A stretch of 64,000 bases of DNA from a virus (lineage: Duplodnaviria; Heunggongvirae; Uroviricota; Caudoviricetes): IMG/VR virus record IMGVR_UViG_3300036760_000193, positions 27,395 to 91,394 of that record; one strand, 5' to 3'. The notes below the pieces were generated by a model. The model was given only the letters and a program-made list of their open reading frames with translations. It did no database searches and had not been told where the DNA came from. Both the position numbers and the translations under genes were made by a program. Position 1 is the first letter of the stretch, and each line of letters starts with the position of its first letter. Of this stretch, positions 6,287-56,624 are shown piece by piece.

Positions 6287-6745
6287 TTAGTCAATCCTCC
6301 CTGGTGATTCGTATTTAGCTCTCAATCTCAAATATTCTTCTGATTCTCGCTTAACTTGTTCCTCGGCATCTTTCATCGCTTTCTCTTGCTTAAGCTGTTC
6401 TTGCTTTGTTTTGTAAGCTTCCATCCCTTCTATGAACAACGGATTGGAAAACAGGCGGGTTAGCCAACCGCCCACGTCAGAAACATCCCATTCCTTCTCG
6501 TTTCGTTCTGTTGGCACCGACACATCTTGAAACTCTACATATTCTTGTTCTAAAATGTCGTACTCAGATAGAGGAAATCCCCAAATACGATTAGGAACCA
6601 ATCGTTCGATAGCTCTATTCTCAAGGTCGTATAAAGTATCTGCTATAATTGTAATACGATCTAAGTCATCGTAGCAACTGCCACAATGTTGTTTCGGCAT
6701 TATCTGAAGCCGGTACTTAGTCTTGAGTTGGGCTGTTACTTCCAT
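6287..6745 (-). CDS. hypothetical protein (152 aa)
   Basis: Minus ORF. Confidence 0.45.
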   Translation of the reverse strand: MEVTAQLKTKYRLQIMPKQHCGSCYDDLDRITIIADTLYDLENRAIERLVPNRIWGFPLSEYDILEQEYVEFQDVSVPTERNEKEWDVSDVGGWLTRLFSNPLFIEGMEAYKTKQEQLKQEKAMKDAEEQVKRESEEYLRLRAKYESPGRID

Positions 6746-7232
6746 TTGTTTCCTCCGTAGGCGATGGAGCTACTGGCGTACACTCCATCACATCATTTAT
6801 AACAGGTCGCGGTCGTCTCAATATTGTGTACTTGATAAAGTTCTTTGTATCGTGTAAAAACCAATGGATTCGGCTTCGCAGTTTCCAATGCCATTTGCTG
6901 TTCCGCTCATCGACATCATACCAAGTCTTCCCCCCATCTTCTGAGAATTTGGCGGGATCGCGGCGGTTCTGCCATACTCCCTTACCATTAAAATATTGTG
7001 TCACTTCCATCCATTCTGTAGGATTAGAGGATATGGGTGTCAAGGTTCTGAACCTCGCTACCCTATTAAAGATTTCCAAGGTCATGCCAGCTGAGAATCC
7101 TGAGTGTCCCTGGGCTGCAAACTTTTCTACCAATTCCAATACTGCATTGCCAAGCATTCCGTCATAGTCGCTGTCTTTGTCAAACAGTCCAGCGCGAGTC
7201 AATTCTTCTTTTGCGTGTTGTACTAAGCTCAT
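6717..7232 (-). CDS. hypothetical protein (171 aa)
   Basis: Minus ORF. Confidence 0.45.
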   Translation of the reverse strand: MSLVQHAKEELTRAGLFDKDSDYDGMLGNAVLELVEKFAAQGHSGFSAGMTLEIFNRVARFRTLTPISSNPTEWMEVTQYFNGKGVWQNRRDPAKFSEDGGKTWYDVDERNSKWHWKLRSRIHWFLHDTKNFIKYTILRRPRPVINDVMECTPVAPSPTEETNGSNSPTQD

Positions 7233-17618: not shown

Positions 17619-17692
17619 TGGAGCGGAGGGGTCGGGATCGAACCGCCATCCTGTTCGGGAAGAACAGATTTTTCCACTTAAACTACCTCCGC
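17619..17692 (-). tRNA. tRNA, probably tRNA-Gly(UCC)
   Basis: 74 nt GCGGAGG...CCTCCGC-T-CCA. 7-bp acceptor stem, TTCGATC T-loop, 5-bp anticodon stem CTGTT/AACAG with loop CTTCCCG (anticodon UCC), CCA encoded. Confidence 0.7.
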
Positions 17693-26073: not shown

Positions 26074-26102
26074 ATTATACCATGAAAACTATAATTTGTC
26101 AA
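26074..26102 (-). promoter_or_regulatory. sigma70-type promoter P8 (TTGACA-17-TATAAT)
   Basis: Plus attata 26074-26079, tgtcaa 26097-26102. Confidence 0.6.
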
Positions 26103-27162: not shown

Positions 27163-27564
27163 TTATTTTGGCTCAGGTATGTCCAAACAAGTTAGGTCAA
27201 CTTGATAAAGCAAATTGTACCTGCGAATCATAATCATGCTGGCACTTCCATGACCCGGGTTATGTGAAGCACACACTGTTCCTATCGCGGCACCTGTACC
27301 ATCCAAGAACTCAACAGCCAACAACCGTGCGTTATATGGCGTCCCGTCTGGTGCAGTGCCTTTGATCTCTGGCTCTACTATCGCTTTGACTGGCAACCCA
27401 GGAAGGTCTATCCGAACTGATACGCTTGACACTTCGACACCTGGAGCAATTGCCGTGGCGTTCTTATCATTGTTCTTCGTTACATAAACTTGCCACATCA
27501 CTTCTGCACTGGCCGTACTGCACAAAAGCCCTATGTTTAGTAACAAATATAGGTATGTTTTCAT
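27163..27564 (-). CDS. putative secreted protein or lipoprotein (133 aa)
   Basis: Signal peptide MKTYLYLLLNIGLLCSTASA with a possible lipobox GLLC. Confidence 0.5.
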   Translation of the reverse strand: MKTYLYLLLNIGLLCSTASAEVMWQVYVTKNNDKNATAIAPGVEVSSVSVRIDLPGLPVKAIVEPEIKGTAPDGTPYNARLLAVEFLDGTGAAIGTVCASHNPGHGSASMIMIRRYNLLYQVDLTCLDIPEPK

Positions 27565-37687: not shown

Positions 37688-38821
37688 TTATATCTCTTTG
37701 GAACTTCTCACCATCTTGGCCGTGATCGCTGTCACTTCGCGTCTCGACACTAACACTTTGCAATAGGCTGAGGGTAGCTTCGACATAAACGTTGCTATGA
37801 TCTCTCCAGGAGCCTTCTGCATAAACTTTATGATGTTCTCTATTCTGTCATTGGTTGGGCTGTCATTAGCAAACATTTCTGCTGACATTTCAGTAAGAGT
37901 CGCATCCCATTCAGGAATCTTCTGCCCTTGTAGTTTGTGTGACACTTCGTCGTACCTATCAAGAACGTCGATGCCACGTACAGGGCGTTTGTACTCTTCG
38001 TTGATCCACTTCTCCAATGCCACTGCCGCCACATTACCCAAGAATCCCACAGCTACTTCATTAAAGATTTCCTGCGGTATCACTCCAGAGTCCATGTAGT
38101 CTCCCAACATGGTGTATTGGTCTGGTGTGTGTTCCAACTCTAATTCAATCTTCTCTTCATTCACAAGAAGGTTAGGATGCTGGGCAATAAAGCCTCGAAT
38201 CTTCTCATTGATGTCGGCCTTGGTCGCCCATCGCAACCAAATGTCTTCGTTGGTTCTCACCTTGATAACACAGAACCGACGGAACATGGCTTTGTCTAGG
38301 GTCTCGACTTGGTATTGTCCGTTGTCTGGGTTGATCGCGGCCACAATGAACCAACCTTTAGGAAGATTATGTGTATGCAGACGACGCTCTTTTACCAACT
38401 GGAAGATAGCTTGTCGCACATCGGTAGGCGCACGGTTAAGCTCATCCAAGAATAGAATGCCTCTTGTCCCTTCTTCGGGGAACCATTCGGGCTGAGCATG
38501 GGACAACACTTTGTACGCTTTCTTAAAAAGCTTTGAAATCTTATCAAGCAGGAAAGGATAACCAACAAGGTCGGCGGGTTCTTGCGTAGCAAGTCTCAGG
38601 TCTACGAATCCAAAGTTCTCTCGAAGTGTCTCTATATCTTTTGGATTGGTAAGATCAAATGACTTGGTGCCAAAATTGCCAAGCTCCACTGCAAGCTCGT
38701 TCACAACCTGCTCCACGATCTGTGTCTTACCTATTCCCATCTGTCCTACCATGAGAATGCCATGCCTTACTTGCGCTCTAGCACACCGTTTGATTAGTTC
38801 TTTTGCTTGGTCAATCCACAT
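37688..38821 (-). CDS. MoxR-like AAA+ ATPase (AAA_5 family, 377 aa)
   Basis: Walker A GQMGIGKT, Walker B ILFLDELNRA, arginine finger/sensor region. Confidence 0.7.
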   Translation of the reverse strand: MWIDQAKELIKRCARAQVRHGILMVGQMGIGKTQIVEQVVNELAVELGNFGTKSFDLTNPKDIETLRENFGFVDLRLATQEPADLVGYPFLLDKISKLFKKAYKVLSHAQPEWFPEEGTRGILFLDELNRAPTDVRQAIFQLVKERRLHTHNLPKGWFIVAAINPDNGQYQVETLDKAMFRRFCVIKVRTNEDIWLRWATKADINEKIRGFIAQHPNLLVNEEKIELELEHTPDQYTMLGDYMDSGVIPQEIFNEVAVGFLGNVAAVALEKWINEEYKRPVRGIDVLDRYDEVSHKLQGQKIPEWDATLTEMSAEMFANDSPTNDRIENIIKFMQKAPGEIIATFMSKLPSAYCKVLVSRREVTAITAKMVRSSKEI

Positions 38822-38864: not shown

Positions 38865-40082
38865 TCAATCCATATTTTGCTGTTTTCTATCCAGCACAAG
38901 AACATCGCCCCAAGGGGCTTTCATATTGGCGTCTATCGTAACCCATAGGGTAGGGTATCGGGGCGCATGGTCAGGAAATGTACCACATAAATCCGTGAAG
39001 TAAACAAGCAAATCTGTCTCCACTCTCTTTTCTGCAATGTGGTCAAAGACGGGCACGAATGATGTACCTCCACGACCTTTGAACTTGGGGTCAACCTTCG
39101 TATGTGGAGTCAGTTTGTAAACCTTCTGCACTTCTGCATCGCACTCAATAATAGTGATCTTGCTCTTGTATGATCTCATAATGCCTTGAATTTCCACCAT
39201 GAAAGCCTGTAAGTCCGCATCGGATACGCTGCCACTGGTGTCTATTGCTACGGTTATAAGAAGCTTGCGGGTCGGAATCTTTCCTTTCTGTGTCATCCCG
39301 AACCGTCTGTTAGGCCACTTCCAACTGTACTTGAAGGATGCCTTCACTCTCAACCCAACCCATTTACGGAGAAGTCGATGCCAAGGTAACACTGGCGGCT
39401 TAAACAACTGGTCAATATCGTCTTGGAGTTTGCCAGGCACTTTACCCTTTAAGCGTTGGGTTTCATCCACCGCTTTCTTAACCGTCTGCCGAATAACCTC
39501 TTCTGCTATGTCTTGGCTGTCCCCTTCTTTGTCTCCCCACTTCCCGTGATTGCCAGGAGCGTCCATGTCGAACTCTCCATGCGTAGAACCATCAGAGTTT
39601 TTGATCGTAACCTTGGTTGTTCCATCACTATTTTGAGAGAATGAAATTTGTTTTTGATGTTGCTTAAGAACATTGTAGTAATACTCGGCTGGTTTGCCCT
39701 TGTGCATTTTCCAATCTGGCGGGTACTTATCCGTAGTGTAAACCCAATCAGGTAGATTCTGAATGTCCTGGTTCACGGCTAGGTCAGCGGCTATGTTCCA
39801 TAGTTCTCTCTGCCGTCCACCCAAGCGGTTCAAATGGTTCTTGATAAGGTGGTGACACTCATGCTCCAAGATAGCTACACGTTGCTTAATATCTGAAAGC
39901 TCTTTCCACTTCTCAGGGTTCCAGTACATTTCTATGTACCCGTTCTTAATCCCCACGGCTGCTGCAAATGGTAGATCAGGTCTAGCGATACGGCGCATCT
40001 GTGTAAGGAGACGGGCGTAGAACACTCCGTCATTTCTCAAAAGGTGTACAACAACCTTTTCGATGTCCTCCATGTCACTCAT
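38865..40082 (-). CDS. VWA-domain protein with an N-terminal HExxH putative metallopeptidase domain (DUF2201-like, 405 aa)
   Basis: HECHH motif in the N-terminal half; MIDAS motif VAIDTSGSV in the C-terminal half. Confidence 0.6.
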   Translation of the reverse strand: MSDMEDIEKVVVHLLRNDGVFYARLLTQMRRIARPDLPFAAAVGIKNGYIEMYWNPEKWKELSDIKQRVAILEHECHHLIKNHLNRLGGRQRELWNIAADLAVNQDIQNLPDWVYTTDKYPPDWKMHKGKPAEYYYNVLKQHQKQISFSQNSDGTTKVTIKNSDGSTHGEFDMDAPGNHGKWGDKEGDSQDIAEEVIRQTVKKAVDETQRLKGKVPGKLQDDIDQLFKPPVLPWHRLLRKWVGLRVKASFKYSWKWPNRRFGMTQKGKIPTRKLLITVAIDTSGSVSDADLQAFMVEIQGIMRSYKSKITIIECDAEVQKVYKLTPHTKVDPKFKGRGGTSFVPVFDHIAEKRVETDLLVYFTDLCGTFPDHAPRYPTLWVTIDANMKAPWGDVLVLDRKQQNMD

Positions 40083-40773
40083 CTGTTAACCTATCCTTGG
40101 TATGTGGCATTTCGTAAAGTGTATCAACCAACTCTGCCAATTTCAACGTGGGCATTTTCTCATGCAGTCTCTCAACAAGTGTTCGTACACGAATAGTTCC
40201 TACTCGTTCTTTCAATTCCACACTTTCTAGCTTCAATGTATCGGTGCAAAGCTTTAATCTATCTTTGAACTCTGGCAATCTCAAACGATAAGCTACAAAG
40301 CAATCATCTGTAATCAATATGGAACTCGCATCACATGACTGAACCTGATAGGTTCCCTTCTCTAAAAATCTACTGCCACTGGGACTGTTGATAAGTTTCT
40401 TTACCAACCGCCCATTCTCATCGTACTTGTTCTCAACATTCTCTACAAGGTTCACTTTATCTCCACTTCGTATCAACGGAAAGGTGTAGTACGGACTCAT
40501 ACCTGTTAGAATTTCTAAAAAGTTGTTCTCAATAAAGTTTGCGCCTTTTTGAGTTAGCTGCATGACGGCCATTTCTTTGTTCTCTACCTTGTCTTTGTAC
40601 ACCACAGCGTAGTTATGTTTCTGAATGTCATCGAAAAAGGATTTCTGAGTGAAGACCTCACCTAGATCGAATATCCCATGCTTGTAAGAATTAAGAAGAA
40701 ACGGAATTGCTGCTGCCGTTAGGTCTTTCTTAACGAAAATGATAGAAATACTATTGGGGGTTTTGGGTTCCAT
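40075..40773 (-). CDS. hypothetical protein (232 aa)
   Basis: Minus ORF. Confidence 0.45.
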   Translation of the reverse strand: MEPKTPNSISIIFVKKDLTAAAIPFLLNSYKHGIFDLGEVFTQKSFFDDIQKHNYAVVYKDKVENKEMAVMQLTQKGANFIENNFLEILTGMSPYYTFPLIRSGDKVNLVENVENKYDENGRLVKKLINSPSGSRFLEKGTYQVQSCDASSILITDDCFVAYRLRLPEFKDRLKLCTDTLKLESVELKERVGTIRVRTLVERLHEKMPTLKLAELVDTLYEMPHTKDRLTDE

Positions 40774-41476
40774 CGACTGATTCTTTGCGCTCTTGAGTGG
40801 CGGCTTTTATAATCTCTCTAAGCTTTTGTTCTAATGAAACAGTGAACTCTTGAAACTTTATATCACCGTGGAAGGATTGGTAAATAACCAAAATATTATC
40901 TAACAGTTCGTCTACTAATCCTTCAAGATAAAGCTGCATGTCCTTTTCATCTTCTTTGTTCAGTTCTTTTCCATATTCGATACTCTTTTCCAAAATGGTT
41001 CTGATGCTTGTTACATAAGAAGAGATCGCATTTTCTAGTTGGGCACTTGGTAGCCCCGTAGACTGAGCACGTTCTAAGAATTGAATACGACCTTCACAAA
41101 ACTCTTTCCAGTATTCTAGCTGTTCTTTGGTGGAACCGCGATCATTATTCAAAACTGAATCAACAATGTTTGCTCCGTGTCGAAACCCCTCTTGCAATGA
41201 AGATGCTGTTTGTCTTTCAATTTCTGCTTCGCGCATTAGATCATCATAATGACGATCAATATATAATTGATAAGTGCCACGGCTGGATGGTATAATGTCA
41301 TTGAAGGTGGGAAACTTCTTTTCAAATTCCGTTTTTGTTTTCACCGCTCCATATCCTACTTTAATGATACTATGCAAAATATCCTTCATGGCCTGTGGAA
41401 GGTCTTCTAATTTAGTATTGTGTATGGGGGCTGGCTCAGGGGCTGGCGGCGGGGTTATTGGCTGTTCTTCATTCAT
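40751..41476 (-). CDS. hypothetical protein with a Pro-rich N-terminus (241 aa)
   Basis: Minus ORF. Confidence 0.45.
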   Translation of the reverse strand: MNEEQPITPPPAPEPAPIHNTKLEDLPQAMKDILHSIIKVGYGAVKTKTEFEKKFPTFNDIIPSSRGTYQLYIDRHYDDLMREAEIERQTASSLQEGFRHGANIVDSVLNNDRGSTKEQLEYWKEFCEGRIQFLERAQSTGLPSAQLENAISSYVTSIRTILEKSIEYGKELNKEDEKDMQLYLEGLVDELLDNILVIYQSFHGDIKFQEFTVSLEQKLREIIKAATQERKESVDGTQNPQ

Positions 41477-42861
41477 TGTAAGTCCTTGTTGGCACGACCT
41501 CGAATGTCTTCCAGGGTCTGTGTTCGTATAATCTCTCCGTTCTCATACACCAATTCCAATAGATCGGTGTGGTGTGACGGGTCTACACTACCTTCACGTA
41601 CTGTCCAAATCTCTCCAGGGTTTGGCTCGACAAGGATGAGACGCCCCGCCTTGCTCTTCTTACCTGGGTCTGTAATGGGATTCTTTGATACAGGAATATG
41701 TTTCCCATCAATTGTAATTTCACTGCACTTCAAAGCGAACTTTTGAGTATCACGGTTCAATTGTTGCAGAAGTGCCCCACCCATTCCAAAAGCAATGTTG
41801 GTTGCGCTATAGCCATCATCCGTGGCGGTCTTAAGAATCTCATTGATACTGTCCTGATTGATTCCATCCCCCTGAATAACTCGAACATTGTTCAGAACTT
41901 TATAGCCTTTGGTATTTACTGTAACACCGAACTTCGTTTCAAGCAATCGCAAGGTTTCCAAAACGATCTCAGGCGGATTGCCAGAGTCAGGACGAATAAT
42001 AACCGTCGCTCCTGAATTTATAACCTCATTCTTAAGAATCTCTCCCCATAAATGCTCAACTGCATTCCATAAATTGTACGAATCAGATACCACAGCCACA
42101 AGGCTACCAGGTTTTGCGAACTGTGTCAACATATTTCTGAAAGCATCTACCTCATGTTCTTTACCCCAAGCAGTGATTGTAGAATGTTCTGCCGCTGGTA
42201 TCGAAAATCCCGCCATGCCAGCTTGATAGTATTTGTTAGCGCACCATACGCCAGCGCATGTATCAGAACCCATGAAGTTAACAAGGTGAGAAGCCCCGCC
42301 AATGGATGCTGACTCTTGGCTCGACACTCCACGGGAACCAAAGTCATGAAGTTTGAAATTGATTTCAGCATCAGGATTGTCTGCGGTCTTTTTCAAATAT
42401 CCATAAATCAATCGTTTGATATGCCAGCTTTGGGTAGCCACAGTGATAGGATACCACATACGCATCAACATGGTCTCGAACCAGGATACCAACCAAAAGC
42501 ATTTAGGGTCTTGGCATTCCACAGTCATCAAAACGTTATGGGTTGGAACTACCAAACCTTCTGGCACTGCTCGAATCCTAAGCGGTATCTTGCCGCCCAA
42601 TTGCTCAACAACATACATCCACCCTTCCAATGGGAATGGTTCCCCATGACCTGCAAAGAAGGCTTGCGCTTCCAATACCATTTCTTTCGTTATACTAACA
42701 GTCAGGTATTTCTGCAAAATATATTGTAACCCAAAGAACACAGTACGATCATACTTTCCCCCACGGCTCTCCACGTATGAATACATACCAGTGGTCTTAG
42801 GTGGGTACTGCAAATGATGGGACGCCTTATACGAGTCTGTGTCAATAATGATGTTGTCCAT
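41473..42861 (-). CDS. nadV: nicotinamide phosphoribosyltransferase (NAMPT/NadV, 462 aa)
   Basis: N-terminal IIDTDSYKASHH (the NAMPT TDSYK motif); length and conserved blocks match NAMPT. Confidence 0.8.
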   Translation of the reverse strand: MDNIIIDTDSYKASHHLQYPPKTTGMYSYVESRGGKYDRTVFFGLQYILQKYLTVSITKEMVLEAQAFFAGHGEPFPLEGWMYVVEQLGGKIPLRIRAVPEGLVVPTHNVLMTVECQDPKCFWLVSWFETMLMRMWYPITVATQSWHIKRLIYGYLKKTADNPDAEINFKLHDFGSRGVSSQESASIGGASHLVNFMGSDTCAGVWCANKYYQAGMAGFSIPAAEHSTITAWGKEHEVDAFRNMLTQFAKPGSLVAVVSDSYNLWNAVEHLWGEILKNEVINSGATVIIRPDSGNPPEIVLETLRLLETKFGVTVNTKGYKVLNNVRVIQGDGINQDSINEILKTATDDGYSATNIAFGMGGALLQQLNRDTQKFALKCSEITIDGKHIPVSKNPITDPGKKSKAGRLILVEPNPGEIWTVREGSVDPSHHTDLLELVYENGEIIRTQTLEDIRGRANKDLQ

Positions 42862-43575
42862 TTATTGCTCCTGGTTTACTTTTAAGAATCGGCTATCGGA
42901 ATTTTCTATGATAACCTTGGCGATCCGACGAATCTCAATTATTTCTTGATTGATACGTTGTTTGGTGATTCCAAATTTCTGTGCAATGAATAGGTTGGTA
43001 GCCTTTGGTGTTCCCGACTTACTGAATGGCATACCGAACAACTCAGGCGCAACCAATACATCTAGGATAAACCCTTGACGTTCTGTCAAACGGGCTTTAA
43101 TGATTGACAGAAGTTGTTCATGTTCAATATTATACGTATTATCTTTCATGGAAAGCATAGTGGAAAGATTCTTAACTTGGCCTCGCTCCGCCGCATTAGC
43201 TTCAATCACACTCTCGTTTATGATTTGCGCTTTAGGCATACGTTTTTTCTGAACGTTCTTCCATGTTCCATCTTTGTAAACATGCCCAGCGGATATTAAC
43301 GCATTCACAATAGATCGGTGAAGAAGCGTATTGAAAAGAGTGCGTCCCGCTTTCGGAAGATGTTTACGTTTCGCTGGATCAAACTTAAAGTTGGGATCAT
43401 AATGTCTTGACACACGAATCAGAACACGAACGGCAATGTTCTCTTTTTCGTCGTCAAACAATACCGATGACTTAAACGACTGTGCTATAGTCAAAGCGTC
43501 TTCATAGTATTTAGAAACTAATTCCCGCTGAGTTGGTGTTAACTCTTGTGGTGTTTCGACGATTTCTTCATTCAT
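42862..43575 (-). CDS. putative sigma-70-family sigma factor-like protein (237 aa)
   Basis: C-terminal QKFGITKQRINQEIIEIRRIAK resembles a sigma region-4.2 HTH. Confidence 0.35.
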   Translation of the reverse strand: MNEEIVETPQELTPTQRELVSKYYEDALTIAQSFKSSVLFDDEKENIAVRVLIRVSRHYDPNFKFDPAKRKHLPKAGRTLFNTLLHRSIVNALISAGHVYKDGTWKNVQKKRMPKAQIINESVIEANAAERGQVKNLSTMLSMKDNTYNIEHEQLLSIIKARLTERQGFILDVLVAPELFGMPFSKSGTPKATNLFIAQKFGITKQRINQEIIEIRRIAKVIIENSDSRFLKVNQEQ

Positions 43576-44537
43576 AAGTCCCCCTTATCTTGTATGCCTT
43601 CATCAATGAAGGTCTCACCTTCCAAGTCGTCGCGGCGACCTTTCGAGTCTTTTTTTCCAAGATGCTGCAACAACGCTGTCCACAAAATCTTGTGAGATTC
43701 ATAAACAAGCTTTAATGTAGCATTGTTTATTGGATAGAACGCCACGTCTTGCAACTCTTCCGTACTTTCTGGATTCCCCCAGGTATGCTTTGCTACAAAA
43801 AACGATGTGATAATACGCTCATCTTTGGTGTATCTCCAATCATTCATCTGAAAACTGCCAACGTAATGCAACGCATCAGCACCCAGGCCAGATACCGTGG
43901 TCTCTTCGTCAAGCTCTCGTACTGCTGCCATCTCCAAGCTTTCATCTGCTGGGTCTACGAACCCACCAGGGAACACCAATGCCCCACCGACAGCCTTGCG
44001 CCCCAACAGAACCTTGTTGCCCTTCACTACAGCAATATCTATCGTCATGTGAAGTCTTGGATATTGGTTTTGCGTCGAATAGATGATCCCCGCTCGAAAG
44101 TCCGAACTGTTACGAATTGTCTTACCAGCGTCTTTACGAATGCTCGTACCAGATACATCGGGGAAGTTCTCGATCTTGCATGTCTTAAGACTTCCATCGT
44201 ACTGCTTCAAAAATGAGTCCTTGCCGCCATATAAACAAACTGTACCCATTGGGAACACTGTACGAATCATAACGTCCAGATTCTTGCTCCACTCTTTATT
44301 GGTTGGTCTGTCCATCAATGGCACCACAATGACATTAGGGAAGTCTGTCTGAATCATCTTAGCACGGCTTGTAAAGTCTAATGGGTCAACCTTCGTACCC
44401 AAGGTGGGAGCGACTCCCAGGAATACCAAAACATTCTTGGCCTCACTGGAAACAAACTCAAGCAGTTTCTTGTGTCCAACGTGAAGCTCTGGCACCTGGA
44501 ACCGCCCGACCACTACCCCAATGTCGTATTTAGTCAT
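43572..44537 (-). CDS. natV: bifunctional NMN adenylyltransferase + Nudix hydrolase (NatV-like)
   Basis: GRFQVPELHVGH (cytidylyltransferase H/TxGH) plus a Nudix box GGFVDPADESLEMAAVRELDEET; start set to ATG 44537 (GGGAGAG SD). Confidence 0.75.
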   Translation of the reverse strand: MTKYDIGVVVGRFQVPELHVGHKKLLEFVSSEAKNVLVFLGVAPTLGTKVDPLDFTSRAKMIQTDFPNVIVVPLMDRPTNKEWSKNLDVMIRTVFPMGTVCLYGGKDSFLKQYDGSLKTCKIENFPDVSGTSIRKDAGKTIRNSSDFRAGIIYSTQNQYPRLHMTIDIAVVKGNKVLLGRKAVGGALVFPGGFVDPADESLEMAAVRELDEETTVSGLGADALHYVGSFQMNDWRYTKDERIITSFFVAKHTWGNPESTEELQDVAFYPINNATLKLVYESHKILWTALLQHLGKKDSKGRRDDLEGETFIDEGIQDKGDL

Positions 44538-45441
44538 TTGATTCTCTCCCGTTATGCGCCCGTTTGATATCAAGAATCCGCCGCAACTGATCGCGGGTTA
44601 ACCCCGACAACTCCAAGCTATAGGTATCATAGTTGATGTTGTATTCAAGCTTCCCCTCTTTGATATAAAAAGATGCACGATTGCCCGTTACATACACATC
44701 TTTCGCTTCTGGAAACTCCACGGCCATCTTTTCTTTAACAACTGTGTCCGTCTCTTTTTGCTGAACTCGCGCTTCATACTTCGACTGCAACTCTTGAACG
44801 AACTCTGTAACCTTGGTATTGATTTTGGTTGCTAGGTCTTTTGTGGTTGGCGTCCAATTCTTCTTGAAGCTGACAGTCCAATCGTCTGAATCAATACGGA
44901 TATACGTTTTGTATCCCGTATGATGATAATGACCGTTACCTTTTAGATTGGCGAACACTCGAATTTTCTTATTGTAAGACGGATGATCTTCGGGGAACAC
45001 TTGAATCTTAATTTCAAAAGCATTTTTTTCCCAGCCATTGTCCTTCACCAATTCATAAACAAATGAATTTTTGACAGCAAATAGACCATCCAACTGATAG
45101 AAAAGCCGTTGAATCACGGCATTGGCTTCTCTCCGCGCTCTCTCATAGGGTGATTGTTTTGGCTCTTCCACTTTTTTCTCCACGACAGGTGGTGGTATGG
45201 GCTTAGCTTCTTCTTCTTTTACAGGATGAATCCCATAGACTCTTGTCAAATTAAATTCTTGAATCAACGCATTGGCCTGGACTGTTCCATGTTCGGATGC
45301 CACGCCACTAAGAACCAAACCCACAATATTATGTGAAAAAGGTCCTTTCTGTCTGATCGCCTTACGAATCTGCTCCCGCGCTTCGTCTAAACTTTCAATC
45401 CCGATTTTCATAAATCCCCCGTTATTTAGGTTCGACTTCAA
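44530..45441 (-). CDS. hypothetical protein (303 aa)
   Basis: Minus ORF. Confidence 0.45.
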   Translation of the reverse strand: MKSNLNNGGFMKIGIESLDEAREQIRKAIRQKGPFSHNIVGLVLSGVASEHGTVQANALIQEFNLTRVYGIHPVKEEEAKPIPPPVVEKKVEEPKQSPYERARREANAVIQRLFYQLDGLFAVKNSFVYELVKDNGWEKNAFEIKIQVFPEDHPSYNKKIRVFANLKGNGHYHHTGYKTYIRIDSDDWTVSFKKNWTPTTKDLATKINTKVTEFVQELQSKYEARVQQKETDTVVKEKMAVEFPEAKDVYVTGNRASFYIKEGKLEYNINYDTYSLELSGLTRDQLRRILDIKRAHNGRESND

Positions 45442-45643
45442 CGACCTGCACTGACCCCTTCGCGTCTGTGTAAATATAATCCCCTAAACTCTTTGACACT
45501 TTGTCCAACAGTTCCCGAATGGTCTCTGGATTCTCACTGCTCGAATTGACGCTCACCAGCACCCGAAACTCTTGAGATACAACGTTGCGTTTAGCCTCGA
45601 ACTTGTGATCTACAAAGTCCTTCGCTTCATCTAGAACGCTCAT
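45422..45643 (-). CDS. hypothetical protein (73 aa)
   Basis: AAGGAG SD; promoter P10 upstream. Confidence 0.45.
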   Translation of the reverse strand: MSVLDEAKDFVDHKFEAKRNVVSQEFRVLVSVNSSSENPETIRELLDKVSKSLGDYIYTDAKGSVQVVEVEPK

Positions 45644-45669: not shown

Positions 45670-45698
45670 ATTATACACCCAAAATGGGGGTTTGTCAA
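45670..45698 (-). promoter_or_regulatory. sigma70-type promoter P10 (TTGACA-17-TATAAT)
   Basis: Plus attata 45670-45675, tgtcaa 45693-45698. Confidence 0.55.
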
Positions 45699-47415: not shown

Positions 47416-47444
47416 AGTATACCATGAATTGAGGAAAAAATCAA
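47416..47444 (-). promoter_or_regulatory. sigma70-type promoter P13 (TTGATT-17-TATACT)
   Basis: Plus agtata 47416-47421, aatcaa 47439-47444. Confidence 0.5.
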
Positions 47445-47923
47445 GGGTTTTTTGGATATCTTCGATGTGGTCTTTTGGCTTGTTTAGAAGCTTTTTTCTT
47501 AGATTTGCCCTTACTAGGGTTTCGGGGGTTTCTTTTAGATTTAGCCTCAAGCTTTAATGCTATACGAATCTTGCGATAGCATACCAATAAGGCGTCTGAA
47601 ACGTAGGGTTGTGTGACTTTAGATTGACGGGCAATTTCATTTTCTAATAGTCCAAATTTGTAACGCAATATAAAAATTTGAAATTGTAAGTCTGTAAGGC
47701 AGGATGCTGCTGCTTTATAAATATCTTCGGACATTTGGTCACGGCGTTTTCTATCAATAAGAAAGGACTCATCAAGTACGTTAGATTTAGAGAAACGTTC
47801 CTCATGTTCTTTTAGGAATATCTCAAGCTCCGCTGGCGATACGTGGACTTCTACAAAATCCAAGTCATATCGTGGACGCCGATCATCCCAATACTTCTCT
47901 CTTATCCATTCTTTTTTTTTCAT
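47441..47923 (-). CDS. sigma-factor region-4-like / ECF-like transcription regulator (160 aa)
   Basis: LTDLQFQIFILRYKFGLLENEIARQSKVTQPYVSDAL resembles a sigma-70 region 4 HTH; basic tail. Confidence 0.4.
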   Translation of the reverse strand: MKKKEWIREKYWDDRRPRYDLDFVEVHVSPAELEIFLKEHEERFSKSNVLDESFLIDRKRRDQMSEDIYKAAASCLTDLQFQIFILRYKFGLLENEIARQSKVTQPYVSDALLVCYRKIRIALKLEAKSKRNPRNPSKGKSKKKASKQAKRPHRRYPKNP

Positions 47924-48453
47924 TCTTTAATAACGAAACATGATGCAGGATCGACTTCGGCCAATACATCACGGCCAAAGACTGACACTTCTACGACTAC
48001 TTTATCCTTCTTCATATATTGAATTTTCCCAACGATACCTAAAAAAGGCCCCGTAGTGATCTCTACCTTCTGACCTATTTCAAGTTCATATCTATCGGCA
48101 ATGGATTGTGGGCTGCTTTTATCATCAGCAACCTTTCGGATGTGCTTCATTTCACTGTCACTTAAAGAAGCAGGATAGGAGCAACCAGGATGCTTAAGAA
48201 GATGCCCACCACAAGAGGTTTGGATCGCCTCTTCCACTTGTCCAGCTTCTATATCGACATTGATAAAGACGTAACCTGGAAACAAGGGGCGCAACAGTTC
48301 TCTGTTTTTACCTCTAATCTTCAAGTAGACTTTCTTCTCTGGAATCCAAACCGCTGAATCCAATACTACCGATTTGATCGCTGCTGGTAGCGCAGAGATA
48401 CGCTTTTGATCTCCAACAAAAGCGACGTACCATTTTTTGTTTGTGTCATTCAT
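47920..48453 (-). CDS. NusG/Spt5-like transcription antitermination factor (177 aa)
   Basis: N-terminal NGN-like KKWYVAFVG; C-terminal KOW motif IGQKVEITTGPFLGIVGKI. Confidence 0.5.
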   Translation of the reverse strand: MNDTNKKWYVAFVGDQKRISALPAAIKSVVLDSAVWIPEKKVYLKIRGKNRELLRPLFPGYVFINVDIEAGQVEEAIQTSCGGHLLKHPGCSYPASLSDSEMKHIRKVADDKSSPQSIADRYELEIGQKVEITTGPFLGIVGKIQYMKKDKVVVEVSVFGRDVLAEVDPASCFVIKE

Positions 48454-53402: not shown

Positions 53403-53938
53403 TTTCCAGATGATCCGAAACCACCTTGGCCTCGGTCACTGTCTGACAATTTATCGCTCTCCACCAATGTCACTTGCGGTGTTGGTAGGATGAGTGCCTG
53501 ACAAAATTTGCTCCCCGCTTCTATAATGAAGTCTTCATACCCATTGTTATAGGCTATGACCAATACTTCATTCCTATATCCTGAATCTATAATCCCAAGA
53601 TGATTTTTAACCTGAACTTTAGCATACGATGATCGCGTATGTACTTGCATGTGCCAACCCGTAGGAATTTCAAATGCCAATCCAGTGCGAACCATGCGCC
53701 ATTGCCCTGCTGGAATGTAAGTTCGTTCTAAGGCGTACAGGTCTATCCCAGCGTCGTCACTGTATGCTTTAGTAGGAATCATTGCTTTGGGGTCTAACTT
53801 TTTGAAGTGCAAAGTTAAGTTGTTCCGTTGATACACTTTACCCATGAATCCATCTATATCTCCCATGATGAGAGACAGAAACCATAGTTTTAATTTCCAC
53901 ATATTCTTACCTAGCGACCAGTTCTTTCTTAAATTCAT
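53399..53938 (-). CDS. dut: dUTP pyrophosphatase (dUTPase)
   Basis: dUTPase motifs AGIDL, GIIDSGYRNE and C-terminal RGQGGFGSSG. Confidence 0.75.
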   Translation of the reverse strand: MNLRKNWSLGKNMWKLKLWFLSLIMGDIDGFMGKVYQRNNLTLHFKKLDPKAMIPTKAYSDDAGIDLYALERTYIPAGQWRMVRTGLAFEIPTGWHMQVHTRSSYAKVQVKNHLGIIDSGYRNEVLVIAYNNGYEDFIIEAGSKFCQALILPTPQVTLVESDKLSDSDRGQGGFGSSGK

Positions 53939-56624
53939 ATGTCTTAGCCTCTCCCCAATTCTTTCCGACTTTGAATTCGGCTCTCATGGGGACATTCACG
54001 CCAGCGATTGGGCGTTCCATTTCTTCCTTCATCGTGTCTATACCACGTTGAAAATCTTCTACATCCACTTCACAATAGATAGCATCATGAACTAAGATGA
54101 GCACTTGTCCTTTGATCCCCTTGGTTTTGAAAGCTAGTCTCATTCTATTAGCGGCGTTACATGTCATATCCGATGCTGCGGCTTGAATAGGGCTGTTCAT
54201 CGCTAACCGTTCATGTTCTTCTCGAACAAACTGCACTGGACTATCAATCCCAGGTAGTCTACGTACTCTACCAAAAATGTCTCTGATCTGTTTGTATTGC
54301 TTCACGGTTATAATAGCCATGTCTAGCCATTGCTTAGCAATAGGATATCGTGCAAGAAATTGGTTGATGATCTCTTGTGCTTTCGTAACTGGAAAGGGCT
54401 TCCCCGTATCCTGACTGATCTGATCTGCAATGCTCTCAGCCTGTCTTCCATACATAATACCAAACACAATACGCTTAGCGGCCTCTCTCATTTCTTTTGT
54501 CACTTGGTCTATAGTGACACCCCAGGCTATAGAAGCAGTCTTTTTGTGGATGTCAGGGCCTGATCCATCATCAGCGGCTACGATGTCTCGAATCATATCT
54601 GGGTCTTGGGAGTAATTCGCCCAATGTCTGAACTCTGCTTGCCCATAGTCCGACTCAATCCAAACTTTCCCAGGTCTTGGAATGAACAAACTCTTGATTT
54701 TGATTTCCGTACCATCTGATAGAATAACAGGAGACCGTGGTATGTTCTGTAAATTGGGGTCACTGCTTGATAGACGGCCTGTCACTGTCCCATGAATCAA
54801 GAAGCTAGAATGCAAAGCATAATTCGCATCTACTCTCTTCTCTAAGCCTTCCACATACTTGCTTAATACACCTACGACCTCTCGGTATTCCAATACCATC
54901 TTGGGGATTGGATGCAAAGGGGCTAAACTCTTAAGAACTTCCTCATCTACAGCTGGCTTCTGGCTCTTTGCTGTTAGCTTATTGACGGGTAACTTCAATT
55001 TATCAAAGAAGATACCAGCCAATTGATCGTTTGAACTAAAATTGAACTCGTCATCCACGTCTGTTAAATTAGACTCCGCACACTTCTTACGAAGTTCTAT
55101 CTCTCGTTTAGAAATCTCTTCAAGTAGTTTGCTCTTGAATTGCTCCAACCGATCTTTGTCTAACATAACACCAGTCAATTCTGCTTCTGTCAATGTCTCA
55201 TTCAACGGCATAACCAACTTACCCATCAATGACTGTAGATTCTCTTCTTCTATTCTAGGCTTAAACAACTCATACAGTCTGAATGTCACATCCGCATCCA
55301 TACCAGCATAAGGATATAAGACTTCTGGGGGTACATGCGCGTAGTTGCGTGACTTCTTTGATCCGCTGGTATTTTCGTCAAACCATTTTTCAAGAGGATC
55401 ATTGTATCCACCCATGTCTGTGTAGTTTTGAGCGCACTCTTTCAAATCGTGCATACCTTCTGCGTTCTCATTCAGAAGGTGGTGAGCAAGCATAGTGTCA
55501 AACCAGAATTTGTTCACCATGATGTTCATGTACTTAAATAAAAATTTGTTATCGAACTTCCCATTATGAGCTATCTTGATAGCATCATTGGCGAATGTCT
55601 TTCTCAACTTCTCTAAAATGTAATCCTTCTTGTCTCCCCACCAATCAAAATACTCATCAATCACTATGGTACTCTTCTTAGGAATCTCTTTGACTCCTGT
55701 CTCTACCCATTGCCCATTCACTTTCTTTTTGGTTTTACGCTTAACCATCTCGATATGTTCTTCTGGCCGTCCATTGTATCTAGTGATTGGCAATATGCAA
55801 GCTGTACCACTCTGCCAACTGAATGAAATACAAAGAACTTTTCCAGTCATGAAGTTAAGACTGTTGGTTTCTATATCATAAGAGAAGGCGGGTACAGTAT
55901 TAAGGCGGGTTATAAGTTGATCGAACTTCTCTGGGGTGTCTACAATCACATACTTTCCAAGTTGTCTTGGTGTAAGCTCTTTATACTCAGAAGATTTCTT
56001 GATACGTCTCAAATCTTCAATGGTAAATCCCTCAAATTCAGGAGAGCGGCGAAGCGTCATTGGATGATAAATAGGAATCACTTTGCAATTATATTTCTCA
56101 CTCCAGACTTCGGCTCCACGGGTTCCCTTAATAGTAGAGACCTTGCCAAATATACGTTTCACAGCAATGGTTCCCATAGGGACAATGATAGTAGGTTGGA
56201 TCGCCGCTATCTCTTTATCTAGATAATCGGCACAAGCTTCGATTTCGTCTTTTTTAGGTTCGCGGATTCTTTCAGGTGGGGGTGCTTTAGGGTAGCATCT
56301 TACTACTGTAGTCAAGAAGACCTCTTGAGCGGAAATTCCCGCTTTCCATAGAAGTCTCTTTACTTCTTTGCCGATTGGGCCACCCCATACATCACCAGAT
56401 TCATCTTCTGGGGAACCAGGCCACTCACCGATAAGCATTATTTTGGCGGTGAGTGATCCCTTGCCGTTTACTACTTTTTTACGACCTTGGCACAATCCGC
56501 ATTTTTGACATGCGCTATTTTGTAGGTCTAACATTGCGTTTCTTTGCTTTAACTCTTCTTGGTTGCCTTTTCGATTGTTTTGGATACACAAGTTTCCCAT
56601 TAGCATCTGGGAATGTGAACTCAA
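53907..56624 (-). CDS. family A DNA polymerase with an N-terminal family-4 UDG-like domain (SPO1 type, 905 aa)
   Basis: N-terminal GEWPGSPEDESGDVWGGPIGK (UDG family 4); 3'-5' exo motifs; PolA motif B RIVFGIMYG and motif C VHDAI. Confidence 0.8.
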   Translation of the reverse strand: MSSHSQMLMGNLCIQNNRKGNQEELKQRNAMLDLQNSACQKCGLCQGRKKVVNGKGSLTAKIMLIGEWPGSPEDESGDVWGGPIGKEVKRLLWKAGISAQEVFLTTVVRCYPKAPPPERIREPKKDEIEACADYLDKEIAAIQPTIIVPMGTIAVKRIFGKVSTIKGTRGAEVWSEKYNCKVIPIYHPMTLRRSPEFEGFTIEDLRRIKKSSEYKELTPRQLGKYVIVDTPEKFDQLITRLNTVPAFSYDIETNSLNFMTGKVLCISFSWQSGTACILPITRYNGRPEEHIEMVKRKTKKKVNGQWVETGVKEIPKKSTIVIDEYFDWWGDKKDYILEKLRKTFANDAIKIAHNGKFDNKFLFKYMNIMVNKFWFDTMLAHHLLNENAEGMHDLKECAQNYTDMGGYNDPLEKWFDENTSGSKKSRNYAHVPPEVLYPYAGMDADVTFRLYELFKPRIEEENLQSLMGKLVMPLNETLTEAELTGVMLDKDRLEQFKSKLLEEISKREIELRKKCAESNLTDVDDEFNFSSNDQLAGIFFDKLKLPVNKLTAKSQKPAVDEEVLKSLAPLHPIPKMVLEYREVVGVLSKYVEGLEKRVDANYALHSSFLIHGTVTGRLSSSDPNLQNIPRSPVILSDGTEIKIKSLFIPRPGKVWIESDYGQAEFRHWANYSQDPDMIRDIVAADDGSGPDIHKKTASIAWGVTIDQVTKEMREAAKRIVFGIMYGRQAESIADQISQDTGKPFPVTKAQEIINQFLARYPIAKQWLDMAIITVKQYKQIRDIFGRVRRLPGIDSPVQFVREEHERLAMNSPIQAAASDMTCNAANRMRLAFKTKGIKGQVLILVHDAIYCEVDVEDFQRGIDTMKEEMERPIAGVNVPMRAEFKVGKNWGEAKTYEFKKELVAR

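Follow-up and report, generated by a model that had tools for sequence, protein, structure and literature searches.

Why does a large phage carry a pair of genes for the salvage of nicotinamide adenine dinucleotide (NAD+), and does it matter that a gene resembling a sigma factor lies between them? This question is raised by a locus in the Caudoviricetes record IMGVR_UViG_3300036760_000193 of IMG/VR, of which we analysed a stretch of 64,000 nucleotides (positions 27,395 to 91,394 of the record; below, the window, whose own coordinates are used throughout). An earlier note on this DNA had described an anti-defence pair, NadV and NatV, with a sigma-like gene inserted. The list of open reading frames (ORFs) of the window has three consecutive genes at 41473-44537, all on the minus strand and all where the note had placed them:

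43572..44537, minus strand: natV-like gene, 321 aa, of a divergent subfamily; predicted bifunctional enzyme with an NadM-type nicotinamide mononucleotide (NMN) adenylyltransferase (NMNAT) domain (residues ~1-155) and a Nudix hydrolase domain (~160-300)
42862..43575, minus strand: predicted divergent two-domain sigma-70-family gene, 237 aa, with sigma2 at ~11-100, sigma4 at ~151-225 and a disordered linker
41473..42861, minus strand: nadV, 462 aa, assigned to nicotinamide phosphoribosyltransferase (NAMPT)

The length of 322 aa given earlier for the NatV-like protein had counted the stop codon. An alternative TTG start of natV at 44573 finds no support in the homologues, whose proteins begin M(T/S)K(Y/F)DIGV. 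The genes are tightly packed. The stop codon of natV and the ATG of the sigma gene overlap as ATGA, with AAGGGGG ahead as the Shine-Dalgarno sequence, and the TAA of the sigma gene directly abuts the ATG of nadV, which has AGGAG ahead in the same role. We infer from these junctions that natV, the sigma gene and nadV are translationally coupled within a longer polycistronic unit.

We read the locus, with a probability of roughly 80%, as a NARP2-type module (NAD+ reconstitution pathway 2) with which an uncultured large phage would rebuild NAD+, and the insertion of the sigma gene as probably incidental. NARP2 is the name given to the Nampt and Nmnat of Vibrio phage KVP40, which raise NAD+ and cancel the defence by type I Thoeris and by DSR2 (10.1101/2024.02.11.579819). 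For the present pair the earlier note had listed Thoeris, DSR, SIR2-HerA and SEFIR as the immune systems countered. That list was shown for NARP1, while NARP2 was tested on type I Thoeris and DSR2 (10.1101/2024.02.11.579819); it was later tested against aRES and Nezha as well, and cancels aRES defence (10.64898/2026.01.28.702374).

The assignment of NadV was unambiguous on sequence grounds. The protein matched Pfam NAPRTase (PF04095; 8.8e-63, 212.7 bits, cutoff 20.8) and NAMPT_N (PF18127; 1.4e-29, 102.6 bits, cutoff 25), the profiles that the note had proposed as a check, both far beyond chance. It also matched the NCBIfam equivalog PRK09198 (1.2e-194, 647.3 bits, cutoff 405) and PHROG 448 (4e-154), scored 592 bits against Xanthomonas NAMPT 7yqo and 460 bits against human NAMPT 2gvg, and was 44% identical to NadV of KVP40 (E=8e-123), whose biochemistry has been characterised. 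The TDSYK N-terminus that had suggested NAMPT is present as DTDSYKASH at residues 7-15. In human NAMPT, Y18 and F193 stack on nicotinamide, D219 sets nicotinamide specificity, H247 is the phospho-histidine, and published structures have R196, R311 and R392 as ligands of the phosphates of phosphoribosyl pyrophosphate (PRPP). In the HMMER alignment to 2gvg, residues Y11, F174, R177, D200, H226 and R290 of NadV correspond to human Y18, F193, R196, D219, H247 and R311, and D292, G331-D332, G361-G362 and R370 to D313, G353-D354, G383-G384 and R392. All motif and residue positions in NadV and NatV were verified by script. NadV thus belongs to the NAMPT clade, not to the Namat clade of NARP1.

The case for NatV was made largely at the family level. 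A family alignment of 40 members, taken from phages and bacteria, was compared as a profile with the PDB; it aligned in two stretches, over both domains, to the NadM-Nudix proteins of Francisella tularensis (2qjt, 1.2e-22) and Synechocystis (slr0787, 2qjo, 1.1e-17), and also matched the archaeal NMNAT 1f9a. The family aligned with KVP40 NatV in hhalign over 267 columns and both domains (97.3% probability, E=1.7e-11). The cytidylyltransferase (H/T)xGH motif that the note had seen is present (GRFQVPELHVGH at residues 11-22), and the three catalytic motifs of the protein are H19-V-G-H22, S129-G-T-S-I-R134 and R207-E208-L-D-E211-E212. The loss of catalytic residues that would speak against the pair was looked for, and the NMNAT and Nudix motif residues are retained. 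Invariant in the 40 homologues are GRFQ, H22, R134, G191-G192-F193, E202, R207, E208, E211 and E212, while position 19 is H, S or T, the canonical variation of (H/T)xGH. These observations support NatV as a bifunctional NadM-Nudix enzyme of a divergent subfamily, and profiles, hhalign and PDB matches together place the NARP2 enzyme set, NAMPT plus bifunctional NMNAT-Nudix, in the window as the note had proposed.

Genomic context gave independent support. Many NatV homologues with 42-48% identity lie on large bacterial contigs, some of them labelled Bacteroidota. On one such contig of 1.59 Mb (L022), a 45%-identical NadM-Nudix gene stands directly upstream of nadV in an operon of an NrtR-like gene, NadM-Nudix, NadV and PRPP synthetase (Prs), which independently marks the subfamily as the NMNAT partner of NadV. 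The order from NadM to NadV is that of the phage. Still, the phage module has neither the NrtR repressor nor the PRPP synthetase, and a sigma-family gene lies inside it instead; without a PRPP synthetase, it must use host PRPP. The comparison suggests that the phage natV-nadV pair derived from an operon of this type by loss of NrtR and Prs. As a side observation, the bacterial operon is preceded, at a distance of 2-3 kb, by two genes with TIR domains (L022, 1594-3152 and 4275-8212; the same in L021); a TIR system that consumes NAD may be paired there with NAD salvage.

The other two known pathways, NARP1 (Adps and Namat) and NARP3 (PnuC and NadR), have the same outcome, NAD+ restored by the phage against NAD-depleting immunity. 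NARP1, however, needs a PRPS-like Adps and a Namat-clade transferase, and NARP3 the transporter PnuC together with NadR, whereas NadV of the window is of the NAMPT clade. Both were set aside, as their partner genes were not found in the scanned ORFs: Pfam searches of 66 of the 70 window ORFs of at least 120 aa, in 64 kb of the 193-kb genome, detected no Adps or Prs (Pribosyl_synth), no PnuC and no NadR. A genome is counted as NARP2 when it has a KVP40-clade Nampt and an Nmnat but no Adps, and this is what we found in 64 kb of the 193-kb contig, with the Nmnat recognised by profile alone. Compared with NARP2 of KVP40, then, the window has the same predicted two-enzyme chemistry, the same NadM and Nudix architecture and motifs, and no detected Adps. 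Its NatV is of another subfamily, with a linker ~45 residues shorter than that of KVP40 NatV.

The middle ORF is, by family profile and predicted structure, a complete two-domain (sigma2 and sigma4) divergent protein of the sigma-70 family. The note had called the 237-aa ORF sigma-region-4-like; the sigma likeness held, but the likeness is to a full sigma2 and sigma4 protein, not to region 4 alone. The identity is visible in the family profile and the model rather than in the single sequence, which had no Pfam or PHROG match and scored 16.9 bits against the curated TIGR02937 profile (cutoff 42.9). The family is very small. A word-indexed search of a database of 5.8 billion proteins gave one homologue, and an exhaustive search with hidden Markov models gave 26 relatives among 1.84 billion representative proteins; tblastn of the ORF against phage records gave no match, an IMG/VR scan with the clade alignment gave nothing, and one scanned metagenome gave a single 1.1-kb contig (L015).

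Among 21 relatives, Pfam detected Sigma70_r2 in 12 and Sigma70_r4 in four. The family consensus shows a region-2 signature, YDPxxGxxFSTxLxxxIxNxL, and a C-terminal helix-turn-helix, LTxRQ...IAxxLGxS...IR. All 60 of the PDB matches listed for the family profile were sigma factors (best 5.8e-8), SigH, SigA, RpoS and FliA among them, and the alignments ran from region 2 through region 4 (profile positions 45-200). An AlphaFold2 model from the 21-sequence alignment reached a mean predicted local distance difference test (pLDDT) score of 78.6, with values >90 over most of both helical domains and a disordered linker of ~50 residues; it replaced a run from two sequences with pLDDT 56.8. In Foldseek searches with this model the top 50 PDB matches were all sigma factors, with probability up to 1.00, and all but one of the named matches in the BFVD top 30 were phage sigma-70/ECF-like (extracytoplasmic function) factors. 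TM-scores were low because the two domains of the free model are placed differently from those of sigma factors bound in the holoenzyme.

The phage factors in BFVD (Synechococcus ACG-2014f and S-CBWM1, Cronobacter GAP52, Bacillus phages) share with the modelled protein the common fold of sigma2, linker and sigma4. They matched with Foldseek probability 1.00, at an identity to the window protein of <=17%. The window gene differs in its place inside an NAD-salvage operon, a location not reported for other phage sigma factors. A 160-aa ORF with a sigma4/YlxM-like helix-turn-helix (47441-47923, minus strand), directly downstream of a NusG-like gene (47920-48453, minus strand; Pfam NusG 2.5e-8), was considered as possible kin of the middle ORF and found to be unrelated. 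The pair of this ORF and the NusG-like gene stands beside the primase in each related contig that has the flank (L002, L007, L008, L009, L019).

The order natV-sigma-nadV was found in eight syntenic contigs, the window included (the others are L002, L007, L008, L009, L016, L017 and L019), with NatV identity down to 60%. In all eight, ORFs of ~240 aa and then ~230 aa follow nadV, and every junction is an overlap or a gap of <=10 nt. Where the contigs reach far enough, the DUF2201 and AAA genes lie downstream, and a primase, the NusG-like gene and a small helix-turn-helix ORF upstream. The sigma ORF is open in five lineages, with a proportion of nonsynonymous differences (pN, 0.38-0.53) below that of synonymous differences (pS, 0.74-0.86); with synonymous sites saturated (pS 0.72-0.87), these values allow the statement that pN is below pS and not a quantified dN/dS. 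An ORF that stays open with pN below pS despite such saturation is a real gene. On the other hand, it has evolved ~2.5-3 times faster than the enzymes (identity 25-46%, compared to 60-76% for NatV and 75-80% for NadV), a rate that resembles that of the neighbouring orphan ORFs.

The note had set this separation of the two genes against the arrangement in KVP40. That contrast did not survive, since the KVP40 genes (natV 94507-95532, nadV 138214-139707) are themselves 42.7 kb apart, and those of the KVP40-like Vibrio phage D479 have eight genes between them; the locus of the window, one coupled operon with the sigma gene in between, is more compact than that of KVP40. In D479 (L011, 309-884), the gene directly downstream of natV is labelled 'Srd anti-sigma factor'. 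Going by this annotation alone, a transcription-takeover gene would stand between natV and nadV in this unrelated lineage too.

The valid comparison of gene order is with adjacent pairs. The genes adjoin in Tunturiibacter phage Tunturi_5, with nothing between them, and in the huge phage LR756502, and they overlap or abut in three metagenomic contigs with unrelated neighbourhoods (L010, L018 and L020, with NatV identities of 59%, 54% and 49%). Adjacency is the norm in the nearest outgroups. The five, together with the Rhizobium phages B1VFA, V1VFA-S and RHph_X66, have NatV of the same subfamily (23-59%) and the same order from natV to nadV, but no sigma gene between and neighbourhoods unrelated to that of the window. 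The simplest history has one insertion of the sigma gene, in the clade's founder, at a junction where natV and nadV had been neighbours ancestrally.

By tblastn, this NatV subfamily was found in eight of 50,697 phage records (Tunturi_5, four huge phages and three Rhizobium phages), compared to 469 phage records for KVP40-type NatV. A megablast of the locus against phage records gave no match, and an IMG/VR scan with NatV gave nothing.

When would these genes be expressed? Upstream of natV lies a perfect sigma-70 consensus promoter, the nearest strong site, and the putative unit that it precedes continues beyond nadV to the DUF2201 gene; the gene after that is listed as well:

45670..45698, minus strand: perfect sigma-70 consensus promoter, TTGACA-17-TATAAT, 12/12 match
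45422-45643, minus strand: 73-aa ORF (orf73), between promoter and natV
44530-45441, minus strand: 303-aa ORF (orf303), between promoter and natV
40751-41476, minus strand: orf241, downstream of nadV, overlapping its neighbours
40075-40773, minus strand: orf232, further downstream, overlapping its neighbours
38865-40082, minus strand: DUF2201 gene by Pfam (VWA-like/putative metallopeptidase), downstream and overlapping
37688-38821, minus strand: MoxR-like AAA_5 ATPase gene, after the DUF2201 gene, with its own promoter-like site at 38868-38840

The 8-nt overlap of orf303 with the natV ATG continues the tight packing upstream. No Pfam or PHROG match was found for orf303 and no PHROG match for orf241 and orf232; equivalents of orf73 and orf303 occur in three related contigs (L002, L006, L007). 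The DUF2201 gene follows the NAD module in all clade members with long enough contigs.

Sites with at most one mismatch to the promoter consensus numbered 19 on the gene strand and four on the other strand, compared to ~1 in shuffled sequences. Many of the 19 share the extended form CCCTTGACAAATT...TGGTATAATG. Examples on the minus strand are 45698-45670, 26102-26074, 16969-16941, 2458-2430 and 853-825, of which those at 26102 and 16969 are near-identical over ~39 nt. From 45670 to 35741 the gene strand has no further site with at most one mismatch; a weaker one (10/12) stands at 38868, ahead of the AAA gene. L002, L007, L008 and L019 likewise have a perfect promoter ahead of natV, at a distance of 0.38-1.16 kb, so that the position is kept in five of the eight clade members. 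A perfect sigma-70 promoter and tight coupling make the block a probably early one, and the genes from orf73 through orf303, natV, the sigma gene, nadV, orf241 and orf232 to the DUF2201 gene probably form one early transcript of the host RNA polymerase. Although NatV has its affinities with Bacteroidota, the use of Shine-Dalgarno sequences and of TTGACA/TATAAT promoters speaks against a host from that group.

In two clade members (L016, 5116-5144; L017, 1043-1071) the sigma ORF itself contains a site that resembles a consensus sigma-70 promoter. This site overlaps the codons of the conserved stretch ..IDEMLKKHYNDA.. and is probably a coding coincidence, although it could be an internal promoter of nadV.

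Under the NARP2 reading, the three proteins would be made early by the unmodified host RNA polymerase. NadV would join nicotinamide with host PRPP to give NMN, and the N-terminal NadM-type domain of NatV would adenylate NMN with ATP to give NAD+. The Nudix domain, judging from secondary descriptions and background knowledge, most likely cleaves ADP-ribose and/or NAD(H); this step would remove the other NADase product and give back ribose-5-phosphate and AMP. The two enzymes would together keep NAD+ up when an NADase immunity of the Thoeris, DSR or aRES-like kind fires, and by analogy with KVP40 an anti-defence role of the pair is plausible. The sigma factor would most likely redirect the host core RNA polymerase to later phage promoters, and its place in the operon would reflect one insertion and general synteny, probably with no biochemical link to NAD.

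Several observations weigh against this reading. NatV has only ~22% identity to KVP40 NatV, with the shorter linker noted above, and the activities might differ; with so remote a relation, the activity assigned to NatV is a prediction. The equivalog cutoff of the NCBIfam PRK05379 group was not reached (best model NF003786, 65.7 bits compared to 397). However, the KVP40-type NatV of D479 falls under the cutoff as well (256 compared to 397 bits), so that the NCBIfam NadM-Nudix models are narrow. The Nudix box, G192-x6-E199-x7-R207-E208-L-D-E211-E212-T-T-V, which the note had called complete, keeps the catalytic REx2EE intact but is not textbook-complete: it has one extra residue between G and E (Gx5E becomes x6) and T for the penultimate/last G. 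The absence of Adps, PnuC and NadR describes 64 kb of a 193-kb genome, and the early timing was derived by consensus matching. A search for a motif of the phage sigma factor by k-mer enrichment in 31 intergenic gaps returned host-type -35 and extended -10 elements alone. Finally, the phage might salvage NAD+ for general metabolism and not to evade defence.

The last point leads to the alternative that survives best, which we regard as possible but not favoured: the pair may be an auxiliary metabolic module that supplies NAD+ for replication and nucleotide metabolism whatever the immunity of the host. NARP2 yields excess NAD+ even without defence (10.1101/2024.02.11.579819), and the cellular homologues stand in plain salvage operons. 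NadV is carried by 33% of jumbo phages and accompanies NadM in every phage that has the latter (PMC9503650), a frequency that makes the enzyme pair ordinary for a large phage. The window is also rich in genes of nucleotide and DNA metabolism (class II ribonucleotide reductase, dUTPase, thymidylate kinase, dCTP-deaminase-like, DNA polymerase). Still, its DNA ligase is ATP-dependent, not NAD-dependent, and no obvious phage consumer of NAD+ was seen in it; for the KVP40 pair, the anti-defence activity was shown experimentally. Another gene of the same genome bears on the choice, outside the operon and 34 kb from the NAD module:

6717..7232, minus strand: Tad3-family ORF (type I Thoeris ThsB inhibitor family), 171 aa; PF25185, E=3.9e-35, 120.6 bits, cutoff 27, residues 1-110

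Proteins of the Tad3 family act by binding the TIR protein ThsB of type I Thoeris, which they block (PMC13402655; 10.64898/2026.01.28.702374). The ORF is a second candidate anti-Thoeris gene; it suggests Thoeris pressure on the phage and indicates selection by NAD-consuming TIR immunity. A sensor blocker beside NAD repair speaks for an anti-defence role rather than for metabolism alone. Naturally, the two roles are not mutually exclusive.

The second alternative gives the sigma gene a part in the NAD module. The protein might displace sigma-70 and shut off its own operon, so that NARP2 is expressed as a short early pulse, or it might regulate NAD-related genes directly. NARP2 has been described as toxic and metabolically costly (10.1101/2024.02.11.579819; 10.64898/2026.01.28.702374), the bacterial operon also has a dedicated regulator in NrtR, and the operon of the window stands behind a consensus sigma-70 promoter. 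All eight clade members have kept the tight three-gene coupling although their synonymous divergence is saturated, and eight of the eight sigma orthologues with readable context lie between natV and nadV. If this were true, the embedded sigma factor would be a built-in timer of a costly counter-defence, curbing overproduction of NAD+ and the drain on PRPP, and would couple immune evasion to the switch from early to middle transcription. We nevertheless consider it unlikely. The whole 10-kb neighbourhood, from primase-NusG to DUF2201-AAA, is equally syntenic, so that the conserved position alone is no proof of functional coupling, and one event plus synteny suffices to explain it. The gene evolves at the pace of the orphan ORFs around it, and most NARP2 phages do without an embedded sigma factor. 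The arrangement is repeated in no independent lineage; a sigma gene of Tunturi_5 that lies 2.5 kb from nadV (gp211) was considered as such a case and rejected, as it is not an orthologue (hhalign 15%).

The third alternative would leave NAD+ synthesis incomplete: the NatV-like protein would be mainly a Nudix hydrolase (a pyrophosphatase of ADP-ribose, NADH or a signal nucleotide), with an N-terminal domain that is degenerate or has another substrate. Of the two NatV profiles that the note had proposed, NUDIX was matched by the single sequence (1.3e-13), while CTP_transf_like fell just short (5e-4, 20.7 bits compared to a cutoff of 21) and has its support at the family level. Precomputed Pfam annotation lists NUDIX alone for most homologues, and BLASTP against KVP40-type NatV aligned a Nudix stretch of 60 residues and nothing else. 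In 8 of the 40 homologues S or T stands in place of the first histidine of HxGH, in 10 of the 40 A replaces the glycine, and the linker is shortened. On the other hand, H or T in the first position is canonical for the (H/T)xGH superfamily, and GRFQ, H22 and the arginine of SGTxxR do not vary across phages and bacteria. The profile of the family matches 2qjt, 2qjo and 1f9a in their NMNAT domains and KVP40 NatV in both of its domains, and NatV of this type adjoins NadV both in phages and in the bacterial NrtR-NadM-NadV-Prs operon. We find this alternative quite improbable.

The weakest alternative, that the middle ORF encodes a generic helix-turn-helix DNA-binding regulator and not a sigma factor, draws on the lack of profile matches for the single sequence and on relatives that match GerE, HTH_11 or HTH_24, but it is very unlikely in view of the conserved N-terminal domain with its region-2 signature, the Sigma70_r2 matches in more than half of the relatives (12/21), the alignment to SigH, SigA, RpoS and FliA that spans regions 2 to 4, and structural matches that are sigma factors throughout the PDB top 50 and for nearly all named BFVD entries.

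The wider window is phage-like throughout, with almost all long ORFs on the minus strand. It encodes a family-A DNA polymerase, class II ribonucleotide reductase, primase, NusG-like protein, ATP-dependent DNA ligase, dUTPase and endonuclease VII. The polymerase (53907-56624, minus strand) has ~30% identity to its best matches in isolated phages (Bacillus SP-10-like), a level that indicates no cultured close relative. Three Mom-family proteins (PF25680, best 4e-45) within 1-37437 suggest elaborate DNA modification. The same part has Band_7/SPFH, a poly(A) polymerase/CCA-adding head domain, a patatin-like phospholipase, a collagen-repeat protein, MgsA_C and HNH endonucleases, as well as a single tRNA gene, tRNA-Gly (TCC), at 17619-17692 on the minus strand.

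Bacterial anti-phage immunity has the depletion of NAD+ among its commonest outcomes; phages are known to reverse the loss by three pathways, of which NARP2 is one. Both enzymes and NARP2 itself were already known, and conceptually the locus adds little. The sole unusual feature, the sigma gene between natV and nadV, is confined to one phage lineage and is probably an incidental variant of gene order; still, it offers a testable case of whether gene order in counter-defence operons carries regulatory meaning. What the locus does indicate is that a divergent NadM-Nudix subfamily, too, can take part in NARP2; this subfamily is rare in isolated phages (8/50,697), common in chromosomes of the Bacteroidota type, and easily missed by searches seeded with KVP40 NatV. 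Here the pathway is laid out as a compact, translationally coupled and probably early operon in a phage that also carries Tad3. This suggests a layered counter-defence, in which the TIR sensor would be blocked and the damage to NAD+ would also be repaired.

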